A stretch of 64,000 bases of DNA from NCBI GenBank assembly GCA_964016885.1, contig OZ024749.1:51956001-52020000 (forward strand), in the 5' to 3' direction. Positions 10,999 through 36,400 of the stretch are shown here, piece after piece (position 1 is the first letter of the stretch; each line of letters starts with the position of its first letter). The notes beneath the pieces were generated by a model. That model did no database searches. It had not been told where the DNA came from and worked only from the letters and a program-made list of their open reading frames with translations. Position numbers and translations under genes: made by a program. The stretch is from Eledone cirrhosa. Its lineage: Eukaryota.

Positions 10999-13900
10999 TC
11001 AGCTGCCACTTTCTGACTCATCAGTCTGTTTAATGTCCACCTGAAACCACCACAACCGGAGTTCATTTGAATAATTCACTGGAACCTCTTCTTCTTCTTC
11101 AGAATCTTCATCAACATGTGTATGCCACTGCCCTGAGGTTGATGCCAACAGAGGGTAACTTGGATGCATGCTGAAAATAAATGAAAATAATAAATCCAAC
11201 AATATATAATAACTTGTCAAGGCAAGTAGCTGAGTGGTTAGAGAATTGGATTCGCAATCGTGAGGTTGTGAATTTCATTCCTGGACCAGGCGATGCGTTA
11301 TGTCCTTGAGCAAGACACTTTATTTCATGTTACTCTTTCTGTCTGGATTTGAAACCAGTAGATAGTATTAGTAATTGGAAAGATCAATGGAAACATTGTT
11401 TCCTTGGTCTGATTTGACAAACTCTATCCCACTCGTTAAGTGAAATCACAGTAATTGTTAATTTAATCTCTTATTTATTATATATATAGTTGGTGTTAGG
11501 AAGGGCATCCAGTGGTTAAGACCAAACCAGAAACAGTTCTGTATGAGCAAGACACTGTCACCTAATCTGATCCTACTTGTCTCACAATGGAACAACTCAT
11601 CTAACCCATGTTAGCATGGAAAGTGGACGTTAAATGAAGATGATGATGATTATATATAAATATATATATATATGTGTTTAGCGTTAGAAAGAGTATCTAC
11701 TTAAGACCCTAAACACCGGCTTATTTTGCTAAATAGTTAAATCCAGGGGCTGTGAAGGTGTTGTGTTATTAAAGCCATGTGTAAGTATACAGTTAATAAG
11801 GTTAGGATTGACAGAAAATTTAGAGACAAGTTTAATACAAAGATAGATATTCAACAGAGCTCTATCCTTATTCCATTCATTATCATGTTTAAGACACAGG
11901 GGTTCAGAACCTGTTTTTCTTGGAAAATATTATATGCTGGTTCTCAGCAAAATCTGTCAAAGTTACAGAAAAAAATTCCAAACCTGGAAATATGGGCAAG
12001 GATCTAAAAGTCCCTGAATAGGTCAAGAATGTGCCAAGTAATAAATATTACACAGATATACAAAAGATGTTGTGGAGTTTATGCCAGAACTTCAAGTGTA
12101 ATAAATATGGAGTGGACGGGCTCTGCTGGTTTTAACACGGAATGTTCTGGTTACTCAAACAATGGAATAACCTGCTTGTGAAATTAACATGTAAGTGGCT
12201 GAGCATTCCATAGACATGTGTACTCTTAATGTAATTCTCAGGGAGATTCAGCATGACACTGCTTGTGAAATTAACATGTAAGTGGCTGAGCATTCCACAG
12301 ACGTGTGTATTCTTAATGTAATGATGGTGGAGGTGGTGTTGATGTTGATATTGGTGGTGATGATGATTAAAAGACAACATACCTAACTCCATTGACAGTG
12401 TCTGTGTGAGCAGGATATGTTAAATGAGGCAAGAGGCTGCGTTCTTCAGTTGTACTTTGATCCTCAGATGTGTTAAACGTGTCCCAAACAGTAATTGTAC
12501 CATTATGGTTTCCTGATATTAAATATTGTTCAGATCTATAAAATAATGATTGATAATTTCAAGAAACATTGAGGTAAGTGAGGTCTGGGGATCTTGTTAT
12601 TGATTTCCTTTCCTTCTATCTAATTATCCATATTAGAATGTGTGTATAAAATATATTTAAAACATTCAAACATTAACTGAATGAGTACTCAATACTGGTG
12701 GGTAGAGTGTAGAAATATATTCTCTAAGTAGTGAAGTGAGGCAGTGACTTTGAAGTTTCACTTTGGTCACTTCATCTGGTTACCAGACGAAGGAACCACG
12801 TCGAAACTTCAAAGTCACTGCCACTGTTCTACTTAGAAAATATATTTCTAATATCCATATATGAAGGTACATGGCCTAATGGTTAGGGTGCTTGGTATAT
12901 GATCATAATGTTGTTGGTTCAATTCCTCAACCTGGTTGTGTGTGTTGTCTTCTTGAACAAGACACTCTATTTCACATTGCTGCAGTATACTCAGCTAACA
13001 GTGAGTACCAGAAGTAGCTGGAGAGTTAATCCTGCAATAGACTGGTGTGCCATCCAGGGGAGGTATTGTATTCTCACTTAATGCCAAGGAAACTGGGGAT
13101 AAGCACCGGCCTGATGAGCATTCAGCTTAGAACAGACTTTAACTTTAACTTTTAACATATTTATTTCGTTTTGGTGACATGAGAAAAAGCACCCAGTCCA
13201 CCCTGTAAAGTGGTCGTGTTGGTGACAAAAACAAAACAAAAAAAGAAACTACATACGGTGAAAGATCAAAATATATTCTTTGATTCGTCTCAACTTGACG
13301 AGTTGCAACATATAAGACATTGCCTAGATTCCGTAAATCCCAGCAAAGTATTTCAGGGTCCTTAAAAATAAATAAATAAATAAAGAATATTAAGAATATT
13401 TTACATTTAAATTACTCTATATTTACTGTTGTATTTTCATAGTAAAAACTTTATTTCACATTATTACCTCACATAATATCGAATCTACAAGATTTTGAGA
13501 ACAATACCATAACATAAGTATGAGCAGCCGGCTATGGCCAGTTTGAACAGAATGAGGCAAGAGAATTCTGGCTGGATACAGCCGGTTTTATTGCTAAAGG
13601 GTTAAGCATTATCAAGTCTGCATTTCTAAAATCATTACTGGTACTTTATTTTATCGACCCCTTAACACTTTAGCATTTAAACTGGCCGTATCCAGCCAGA
13701 ATTCGCTCACATCTTTCTGTTCAAACTGGCCTCTCATACCAATGTATTGCTCTCAAAATAAATAACATCAAAATCTCGTAAATTCGATATTATGTGAGAT
13801 AATACATAAGATAAAGCTTTACCACAAAAATACAATAGTATATATATAGAGAGAGTAATGTAAATGCTAAAGTGTGAAGGATGAAAGGTAAAACTAACCT

Positions 13901-33469: not shown

Positions 33470-36400
33470 TTATGCAAGATAAGTATACATTTTTCTGAAA
33501 TAGAAAAAAAATAAAGCACTATTATTAACAGGTGACTTTTTTTTTTTTTTTTTTTTTTTAGAAAATAAAATCATATCACCCTCCCTTTAACCATTGCCTT
33601 GTCAAATGCCCAGAAACACCCACTTATAACTGCATACCTATCTCGCTCTACAGTTAGGTGATAGTGCCATGAAAATGCACCTGGTACACTCCATATGTGT
33701 GGTTTGCGACAGGGAAGGACACCCTGCCTAAAAGGGTTGAGAGGACCTTTTAGTTGTGTCAAAGACACAACAACCTCTCTAGTGTTGGTGATCTACACAA
33801 TAAATGCACTCGGCCATAGAAATATTGCCAAACAAAGGGTTGGGAGAACCCTCAGTTGTGTCAAAGACATGACAATCTCTCCTATGCACTCGGTGGAACG
33901 TATGACCGTATATAAGACAACAGACCCCTGGCTTGTCTGGGAGATCAGTAACCACCGCATCAACACTCACTTGGTCTATGTAAACCACTCCAGCACTATC
34001 GCTTTAAATGGTGAACTGAGTGCTTTTTATCATAACACTAACACTATCACTTTACAGAGTGAGCTGTGTGCTTTTTTGGGAGAGGAGACATACCTCCATG
34101 AGAGAGGAAGCATTGGGTCCTGAGGAAATATGTTAAGCAATGAAAATGTAAAATCAATCAGATTCAATACTTTAGTTTCAACAATTCAGACTAAATCTTT
34201 AAATATACATACCTGTCTTCAGGAGTTCTAGCCAAATATTCTCGTTCTATCAAGCCCTCAATTCGTTTTTTAATTACCACTGGACTAGGTAAAAATCGAG
34301 CTTTCAGTTGTTCAGTCACCTAGTAATAAATTATTTAGAAATATTAGCCAAAAAAATTCAGGTATCAGAACAACCTTCAAATATTTATGGTAGAAAACTT
34401 CATCTTATTTTTTTTTCTTTCAACAACAATTGTTAGAAATGGAGACCAATTTACTTCTCACTGCACATGTTAACTTTCACCATTACTTTCTGATAGCAGT
34501 GTAAAAAGTAATGTTAAAAAATAAAATGTCTGACAGCCACACATGTTAGAATGTTAAATGAATGGATGACAAGGTTAGCAATGTGTACAGAAAACTCTCA
34601 AACCACTGTCATTGGTTTAAATAAAAGCTAATTGAATATATATATATATATAGTAATAATAATAAATATATATAAAATATATAAGAACCATAGAGCAAAT
34701 ATTTATTAAAATAACAGATTAAAGTTTAAGCAAAGAATCGCTGCTTTCACCCTTAACGGGATCTTCAGAAGATTCCGTTAAGGGTGAAAGCAGCGATTCT
34801 TTGCTTAAACTTTAATCTGTTATTTTAATAAATATATATATATATATATATATACATATACACAAACATTATACATGATGTTGAAATGTTTTAAGTTTTG
34901 CTTTTCATTAGCAAACCACAGAGTCCTAAGATACAAATACGTTTTATCTGAAATCTTTTTAGTTATTGCAAGTTCTGACTCCCGTCCATTCATAAAATCA
35001 CACACACTCTCATGTGTGTCTACATTACTCTATAATATATGAATGTTGTAATCAAATAAGTGACACTAACCTCTGCAACCAATACATTGTGTTGTAACTT
35101 TTTTCTGGCTTTCATGATCCTGACAATTGCAGCTTCAATCGTGGAGATGGTCAAGGAAAAATATAGTCTTATGATTCCAGTAAACACTGTAATACACACA
35201 CTCACTCTCTAAGATATCTTTAATGTATCCTCTTCTTTTTCTCACATAACTATAGGATAACTAATATTTTCTAAAAACACACACAATCTTTTTTACTATC
35301 CTATAACTACTAACCCCGCCCATTAATTTATTTACTGTCCTACAACAACCCCGCCCATTAATTTGTTTATTATCCTACAACCCCACCCACTAATTTGTTT
35401 ACTATCCTACAACAACCCCACCCACTAATTTGTTTACTATCCTACAACCCCACCCACTAATTTGTTTACTATCCTACAACAACCCCACCCACTAATTTGT
35501 TTACTATCCTACAACCCCACCCACTAATTTGTTTACTATCCTACAACAACCCCACACACTAATTTGTTTACTATCCTACAACAACCCCACCCACTAATTT
35601 GTTTACTATCCTACAACCCCGCCCACTAATTTGTTTACTATCCTACAACCCCACCCACTAATTTGTTTACTATCCTACAACAACCCCACCCACTAATTTG
35701 TTTACTATCCTACAACCCCACCCACTAATTTGTTTACTATCCTACAACAACCCCACACACTAATTTGTTTACTATCCTACAACAACCCCACCCACTAATT
35801 TGTTTACTATCCTACAACCCCGCCCACTAATTTGTTTACTATCCTACAACCCCACCCACTAATTTGTTTACTATCCTACAACAACCCCACCCACTAATTT
35901 GTTTACTATCCTACAACCCCACCCACTAATTTATTTACTATCCTACAACCCCGCCCACTAATTTGTTTACTATCCTACAACCCCACCCACTAATTTGTTT
36001 ACTATCCTACAACAACCCCACTCACTAATTTGTTTACTATCCTACAACCCCACCCACTAATTTGTTTACTATCCTACAACCCCACCCACTAATTTGTTTA
36101 CTATCCTACAACAACCCCACCCACTAATTTGTTTACTATCCTACAACCCCACCCACTAATTTGTTTACTATCCTACAACAACCCCACCCACTAATTTGTT
36201 TACTATCCTACAACCCCACCCACTAATTTGTTTACTATCCTACAACAACCCCACCCACTAATTTGTTTACTATCCTACAACAACCCCACCCACTAATTTG
36301 TTTACTATCCTACAACCCCACCCACTAATTTGTTTACTATCCTACAACAACCCCACCCACTAATTTATTTACTATCCTACAACCCCGCCCACTAATTTGT

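Follow-up and report, generated by a model that had tools for sequence, protein, structure and literature searches.

The 64,000-nucleotide (nt) window analysed here (contig OZ024749.1, positions 51,956,001 to 52,020,000 of the forward strand, Eledone cirrhosa assembly GCA_964016885.1; 34% G+C) carries exons of a cullin and of other genes, and three fold-back palindromes that probably consist of leader copies of Penelope-like elements (PLEs). The original prediction, made from the letters of the window alone, was that three unrelated palindromes fold back at or next to a hammerhead ribozyme core of Penelope-type insertions, and that the core makes the reverse transcriptase (RT) stall or switch templates. 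We found that the positional bias at the 5' edge of the hammerhead is real.

An inverted-repeat census of the window located one palindrome at 34699-34835, with arms of 68 nt (67 paired) and a 1-nt spacer, and further palindromes at 12710-12850 and 20950-20990. All three exist where they had been placed, and they fold far more stably than shuffled sequence: the RNA fold energies of the 34699, 12710 and 20950 palindromes were -99, -76.5 and -32.1 kcal/mol, with z values of -22.5, -13.9 and -6.7, respectively. The families are named F1 (the 12710 palindrome), F2 (20950) and F3 (34699); F4 and F5 are palindrome-forming families from flanking DNA. Signed positions such as -5 or +41 are counted from the core base C3, "leader +1" denotes the presumed RNA start, and locus names (L185, L152 etc.) refer to genomic stretches sampled outside the window, the 3.0-Gb genome having been sampled rather than scanned whole. 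The insertions are larger than the tiny ones first described. They extend over 12634-12851, ~20937-21089 and ~34652-34835, and each is made of one long and one short arm (Table 1).

Table 1. Palindrome arms, an additional F2 copy and the cullin intron in the window
Feature	Coordinates	Strand	Remarks
F1 long arm	12634..12779	-	inverted leader +5 to ~+156; core CAGAUGA
F1 short arm	12783..12851	+	leader +5 to +72; core decayed to CAGACGA
F2 short arm	20937..20967	-	begins near +10; ~24-nt internal deletion
F2 long arm	20972..21089	+	leader +9 to ~+122, decayed; first base of the core gone
Second F2 copy, solo	21123..21272	-	begins at presumed +1 (21271), one extra G before it (21272); canonical CUGAUGA core
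Cullin GT-AG intron, 751 nt	34320..35070	-	between two neddylation-domain exons; contains the F3 hairpin
F3 long arm	34652..34766	-	inverted Hydra-clade leader, ~+4 to +160, with internal deletion; (TA)n target at end; reference L185
F3 short arm	34764..34835	+	leader +4 to +75; stems II and III present
F3 short-arm core	34766-34772	+	CAGAAGA (native form); predicted cleavage site after 34806

The two arms of the F3 copy meet through a self-complementary TTC-A-GAA, a junction that recurs in five other loci (L105, L207, L209, L152 and L264). Stems II and III of the hammerhead were found as first read, but the CUGAAGA core reported for this copy occurs only on the minus strand, where it is made by the TTC-A-GAA junction. 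It had also been claimed that an inverted arm replaces the 5' arm of stem I. This is largely so in the three copies; the native families, however, possess stem I. The term "ribozyme-dead" applies to the three copies by structure only, and two of the three families are natively non-canonical. A candidate 9-bp target duplication (12625-12633 and 12852-12860) borders the F1 insertion, and the F2 copy at 20950 has lost C3, so that it failed the strict core pattern.

Element families and the hammerhead fold

At least 30,656 exact genomic matches to an F3 25-mer were found, and F1 and F2 also have many genomic relatives. The three palindromes come from distinct repeat families as proposed, but from families of the same kind, all of them resembling leaders of Hydra-clade PLEs. 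A whole F3 element in L185 comprises an inverted short copy, a 5' pseudo-long terminal repeat (pseudo-LTR), a 708-amino-acid open reading frame (ORF), a 3' untranslated region, a second pseudo-LTR and a tail, with (TA)n as the target. Its pseudo-LTRs are in a partial tandem arrangement with an inverted 5' copy and a one-sided tail. The single ORF encodes an RT followed by a C-terminal GIY-YIG-like endonuclease (YRDD at 348, NIVY...YIG at 584-602) and contains RWR at 37, DKT at 115, CNCRNRADC at 566, CxxC at 661 and CxH at 689. Pfam and PDB sequence searches with the F3 ORF gave no match. By eye, the L185 protein resembles the Hydra proteins in the supplement of PMC8557442 (here and below, statements on PMC8557442, PMC3846280, PMC11167929, PMC11702581, PMC2377424 and PMC4209133 refer to the accessible parts of these sources). 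Judged from its ORF motifs and this likeness, F3 is an autonomous Hydra-clade PLE, and the Penelope-like origin proposed for the palindromes was borne out.

The F4 leader was continuous with the C-terminus of another Hydra-type ORF in L152 and L016. One F2 leader copy runs into a weak 14-residue match at the ORF start (E = 0.002), and no ORF link was found for the F1 and F5 leaders in the sampled loci. A tail motif, CTCTAC...GTATTGAG, is common to F1, F2, F4 and the coral element Hydra-2_Amil (PMC8557442 supplement). It sits between the two arm end points, for example at 12690-12712 and 21170-21200 of the window, and is a candidate protein-binding site.

The native core of F3 is CAGAAGA (context AGUUU-CAGAAGA) in 146 of 155 native-context copies, and CUGA was found in none of the 155. 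F1 natively carries CAGAUGA and F2 the canonical CUGAUGA; the invariant CUGANGA plus GAAA core is present in native F2 and absent from F1, F3, F4 and F5. U4 is a conserved base of the hammerhead core, and a literature search on U4A hammerhead variants returned nothing relevant. The arrangement is that of a type I hammerhead, with three stems around the core and open at stem I. In 14 F2 copies from four subfamilies, 88.5% of the cells of the hammerhead structure were paired, compared with 30-51% when the structure was slid; F2 stem I shows an A-U/G-C change, and covariation was not above that of shuffles (70 of 500). For F1 and F3, the three-stem hammerhead was seen by inspection, and their minimum-free-energy folds show no hammerhead. 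None of the 71 matches (E<=5) from an Rfam scan of the window was a hammerhead.

Three further families were seen in the sampled loci. F4 (L152:1160-1295, L016:1208-1340) is very abundant; it retains GAAAC, a 5-bp stem III with a palindromic loop, and a GUC triplet, and its first core box is broken. F5 (L265:6690-6870) forms palindromes at (TA)n targets, with a hairpin at its 5' end and a TATA box 30 nt upstream; it lacks the hammerhead core and is possibly mobilised in trans. F9 (L207:3660-3740, also L058 and L231) has a canonical CUGAUGA and an F3-like stem II, with the palindrome axis ~25 nt upstream of the core.

Two other kinds of element were ruled out. Non-LTR retrozymes are head-to-tail tandem units, each with a complete hammerhead (10.64898/2026.07.22.740005), whereas the copies here are dispersed as solo or head-to-head units. 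A miniature inverted-repeat transposable element (MITE) is a DNA transposon with fixed, equal terminal inverted repeats, whereas the arms here end at two different fixed sites and their centres vary between copies.

Position and sequence of the 5' ends

F3 5' ends were sampled as the first 100 listed matches to a pattern downstream of the ribozyme, the 5' end being no part of the selection; the sample comes from the first 27 Mb of one contig and requires an exact 25-mer. Twenty-eight of the 100 ends fell within the 14 nt from -9 to +4 (8 exactly at -5 and 17 at -4 to +4). The remainder were distributed further downstream (16), over -199 to -10 (22) and beyond (34). The rate per nt was 0.028 in -9 to +4 vs. 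0.002-0.005 elsewhere, a 6-15-fold excess. Near the predicted cut (+41), only 3 of 100 ends were found at +35 to +44; in F1, 3 of 32 ends lay within 2 nt of the predicted cut. Genome-wide, 2,136 F3 copies have a preceding non-T at base -5, the first of stem I, vs. 43 at the control base -22. Junctions made up 81 of the first 100 rows at -5 and 31 of the 43 at -22. With native variants removed and the counts scaled by pattern frequency, the junction rate was ~11% at -5 and 0.3% at -22, a ~38-fold difference.

The F1 and F2a ends agree with the F3 peak, blurred by age. Nine of 32 F1 ends were within 3 nt of leader +1, with 8 more up to +13 and 3 reaching well upstream; the corresponding numbers for 48 F2a ends were 12, 17 and 1. 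The peak is shared by the core-less F5 (14 of 18 ends within 3 nt) and the broken-core F4 (23 of 35 within -10 to +13).

For the palindrome axes, the chance of a strict core within 12 nt is 0.0066 per palindrome. Such a core was found in 2 of 8 palindromes of the window census (p = 0.001, for palindromes that the original prediction had chosen) and in 2 of 6 palindromes in 110 kb of unselected neighbouring DNA (p = 6e-4). The clustering of fold-back axes at the 5' edge of the hammerhead stands, genome-wide, and the axes are not uniformly distributed. A rule that all palindromes lie at hammerheads does not hold: of the 96 palindromes in 490 kb of loci selected for F3, 13 had a strict core no more than 12 nt away. 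Eight of these 13 were F3; among the 96, 17 were F4 or F5 and 58 were other.

The base before -5 was G in 51, A in 24 and C in 6 of the 81 F3 junctions (hand count). G preceded the control base in 5 of 31 junctions (Fisher p = 1.4e-5), and none of the 19 native variants among the first 100 rows had a G. Because the patterns used allow neither T at the test position nor C at the first, one class of G-bearing junction is lost. Among the loci behind the 81 rows in which the partner arm cannot supply the base before -5, it was G in 26, A in 4 and C in 1; 25 solo F3 copies gave 16 G, 6 A and 3 C. Further upstream of the extra base, no common sequence was seen among F3 loci. At least 9,724 F4 copies have a non-T before the start, and the first 100 of these matches carried 46 G, 7 A and 47 C, the C being ambiguous as it is also a native variant. 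It was reported previously that an extra G at full-length L1 insertions is the trace of a reverse-transcribed mRNA cap (PMC11702581).

A TATA-like box precedes the usual 5' end by 30 nt in F1 (L130, L136), F2a, F2c (two copies) and F5, and by 31 nt in F4. The F1 spacing was present in 2 of 3 long copies, the third (L126) being rearranged. The F3 and F4 starts are initiator-like (TTAGT/TCAGT). In F3 and the F2 subfamilies, stem I pairing starts at the same base as the 5'-end peak, as would be expected if the RNA has nothing upstream to pair. In coral Hydra-2_Amil (PMC8557442 supplement), a TATA-like run was seen by eye ~31-34 nt before stem I, which is a weak lead for a clade-wide arrangement.

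Origin of the palindromes

In 14 of 14 small F3 palindromes, the arms end at +69 and +155, one at each position; the long arm in the window reads 104 owing to its deletion. Long and short arms were paired in 55 of 56 F3 rows with a partner arm (six loci being listed from both strands), and likewise in F4 (23/25), F2 (42/44) and F1 (4/5). Arms of either type were seen to extend as far as the start (21 long and 26 short). For 16 of the 56 rows, the long arm breaks off downstream of +69, which leaves arms without shared sequence, and neither arm can then be a copy of the other. Both arms reach -5 in 8 loci, and each of these arms carries the G; in five of the loci, just 1 nt lies between them. 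Short additions of TTCT or CT before the G were seen at some F3 junctions. Sequence differences between F3 arms did not distinguish one template from two. The long/short pairing, the arms without overlap and the G on both arms point to two cDNAs joined head to head.

The palindromes are probably leader copies of Hydra-clade PLEs placed head to head by twin priming, with the axis marking the capped 5' end of the sense RNA, where the RT would run off. Transcription from the pseudo-LTR promoter would begin with the first base of hammerhead stem I. Both strands of an AT-rich or (TA)n target would be cut by the protein, and two cDNAs would be primed at two fixed sites, ~60-75 and 130-160 nt from the cap, the protein engaging either the 5' copy of the priming sites or a short transcript from a solo pseudo-LTR. 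Both cDNAs would soon reach the cap and add C opposite it, and their 3' ends would then be joined, often after trimming by a few bases to a short self-complementary motif. The ribozyme would lie at the axis because it comes first in the transcript, not because it halts the enzyme. The pattern of the arms fits two cDNAs primed on either side of the break at the sites bounding the tail, and matches the two internal initiation sites and the extension of both strands found in vitro for a Poseidon element (PMC11167929). The G at the sense start points to a sense rather than an antisense template. As the main template, a ribozyme cleavage product was rejected for F3, given the few ends near the cut; it possibly makes up a minor share of templates in F1 and F2.

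Several points weigh against twin priming on a capped sense RNA. The added G marks the end of the template and is no proof of a cap, and the RNA start was deduced from genomic junctions and the geometry of motifs. The TATA spacing comes from 1-3 long copies per family, and F3 has no TATA box, only the initiator-like motif. F1 and F5 are not linked to a coding element, and the link of F2 is the one weak 14-residue match. In F2, an old family, the ends are scattered across the first 25 nt (+4 to +23 in 24 of 48), and a slight shoulder within the fold is seen in F3 (13 of 97 at +5 to +34); structure-induced stops may add to the end pattern.

The original prediction held the hammerhead responsible: the fold or its catalytic core would stall the RT or trigger template switching, and truncations and fold-backs would pile up there. 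The axes do lie at the core in three families, the F2 and F3 ends inside the fold are of the kind expected, and the F4 and F5 leaders can still form hairpins, at which structure as such might stop the enzyme. However, the 3' side of the fold is what an RT moving 3' to 5' would encounter first, whereas the ends peak at the opposite, 5' edge, with the entire fold downstream, and only 3 of 100 F3 ends lie at +35 to +44. The peak is equally sharp in F5 and F4, and stalling predicts neither a single-base extra G nor a TATA spacing. Taken together, the extra G, the TATA spacing, the core-less families and the start of stem I favour run-off at a capped RNA start, and we regard the core as an improbable cause. 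In another reading, a single molecule would prime itself: antisense RNA (Arkhipova et al., 2013) or a lone cDNA would snap back at small natural inverted repeats (TTC-A-GAA, GC-A-GC, ATC-W-GAT) and be extended into a palindrome. Recurrent junction classes do use these motifs, the TTCT or CT additions before the G resemble aborted snap-back, and snap-back after full-length cDNA is documented for R2 (PMC11371274). Against it stand the arms without overlap, the G-bearing arm that is often the shorter one with its partner extending further 3', the loci with G on both arms and as little as 1 nt between, and the solo copies that begin at the same base with a G and have no inverted arm; an antisense template would also leave the G at the sense start unexplained. 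As a general route, snap-back is contradicted by these observations and very improbable, but it may shape a minority of junctions, such as those with TTCT-type additions.

The fixed 5' end could also be a splice acceptor: an intron would end where helix I begins, and a short first exon would contribute the G and the AG. In Drosophila virilis Penelope, the intron end maps to the 5' end of helix I (PMC4209133). Most leaders here (F1, F2c, F2d, F3, F4 and F5) have AG at the start, and F3 has a branch-like motif and pyrimidines upstream. The lack of common bases upstream of the G would, however, reduce the exon to 3 nt; F2a has no AG at the start and F5 no pyrimidine tract, and the TATA spacing fits a start site. 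The AG is part of the TCAGT/TTAGT initiator motif. Splicing is a highly improbable explanation, and we retain twin priming on capped sense RNA.

Intronic hairpins, neighbouring genes and known systems

The suggestion that such insertions give rise to intronic hairpins stands for at least the F3 copy, which lies in the cullin intron. The palindrome would form a hairpin of 67 of 68 pairs in the cullin pre-mRNA. The exons on either side correspond to Pfam PF10557 positions 5-30 and 30-63. Among contigs matched to the cullin intron, those from run X4 show these exons, one of them covering 35069-35140 and ending at 35140, and many others are F3 leader contigs; two letter differences in contigs over the intron are F3 family variants. 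For the F3 leader, no run recorded as RNA was listed, which speaks neither for nor against a start there. No surrounding gene was found for the F1 and F2 copies among 37 frames scanned. In 27.4 Mb, 23 F3 loci possess an inverted partner and begin no further upstream than -9, corresponding to ~2,500 genome-wide if uniform.

The cullin exon at 35140-35071 is preceded (35140-35165, minus strand) by a TTCCTTGAC branch-like site and an AC acceptor, and the intron before it looks like a minor-spliceosome (AT-AC) intron. A broken piggyBac-type DDE transposase (PF13843; 39963-41393, plus strand) lies within the cullin gene. An FHA-domain exon, which we take to be SNIP1-like, is found at 23835-24677 and a Na/K-ATPase beta exon at 7255-7773, both on the plus strand. 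A fragment of another PLE-like GIY-YIG endonuclease ORF is present at 6224-6652 (minus strand); the palindrome within it (6438-6540) is a perfect 44-bp inverted repeat inside the coding region, and its axis is not at a hammerhead. Other repeats in the window are a MITE-like nested palindrome with sub-terminal hairpins (4135-4626) and a tandem repeat of ~51-nt units with long open frames on both strands (18014-18944).

Thousands of genomic junctions provide a direct handle on the template strand and the insertion of PLEs. From the hot spot, the extra G, the promoter spacing and the long/short pairing, it is predicted that the template is a capped sense RNA and that two priming events are coupled; the hammerhead of the element would lie at the very start of its RNA. 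Families with a non-canonical core have spread to tens of thousands of copies. It is conceivable, although we consider it rather unlikely, that a hammerhead at +1 serves Hydra-clade RNAs as an off switch, which families with a CAGA core or no core have escaped, and that twin priming mass-produces hairpins as a supply of double-stranded RNA. Self-cleavage would then strip the RNA of its cap and of the first 40-45 nt and silence the element's own message, and the very abundant families would have escaped via a fixed CAGA core or loss of the core. Hairpins of 100-230 bp (~2,500 from F3 by extrapolation and more from F4), many of them intronic, would then supply double-stranded RNA for editing or silencing.

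The literature search found no cap-marked junction hot spot, no hammerhead at +1 and no CAGA-core PLE hammerhead; most subscription papers, including older Penelope reviews, were outside this search. The regularity of the junctions is apparently undescribed in a known class of elements. How PLE insertion is completed, which RNA strand is copied and how head-to-head repeats originate were stated to be open questions (PMC3846280, PMC11167929).

The elements share with the Hydra-clade PLEs of Craig et al. (2021, PMC8557442) the C-terminal GIY-YIG, the RW-R/K, DKT and CxCX5C motifs, (TA)n targets, a unit of ~3 kb, and a type I hammerhead whose stem II is closed by a U-U pair. PLEs have been described with an inverted, 5'-truncated copy and with a "tail" on one side, and Hydra-1_Obim comes from Octopus bimaculoides (PMC8557442). 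In contrast, every hammerhead in the table of that paper has CUGA, whereas F3 and F1 have CAGA; its tails are 30-40 nt long vs. 70-90 nt here. The accessible part of its supplement gave 0 matches to the F3, F2 and F4 motifs, and the accessible text describes neither the placement of the hammerhead relative to the start site nor a junction hot spot.

Penelope of Adineta vaga (Arkhipova et al., 2013, PMC3846280) likewise has inverted pseudo-LTRs, a palindromic inverted junction, a tail on one arm and solo pseudo-LTRs, and its pseudo-LTR carries TATA plus initiator-like motifs. The palindromes were explained there by self-priming, probably on an antisense template with a sense template left open, and the solo copies were ascribed to recombination or deletion. 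Our data instead favour a sense template that carries a cap, the joining of two cDNAs, and solo leaders that form directly. In Drosophila virilis Penelope, the promoter is TATA-less, and the intron, which begins 46 nt downstream of the start site, ends at helix I (PMC2377424, PMC4209133); in the families here, it is apparently the start site that adjoins helix I.

L1 twin priming joins two cDNAs at their 3' ends and produces an inversion; the second priming site is opportunistic and its use occasional. Here, priming appears to occur at two fixed sites, and the two arms are usually copies of one leader. The extra G at the RNA 5' end is common to both (PMC11702581). The Anolis Poseidon element PAc (Frangieh et al., 2024, PMC11167929) also has two fixed internal initiation sites bounding the tail. 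In vitro, both strands were cleaved and extended at AT-rich targets, with uncleaved RNA as the main template. The start site did not differ between strands, and the 5' junction is not addressed in the accessible part of that work; in the palindromes described here, one site of each kind is used and the copies end at the presumed cap.

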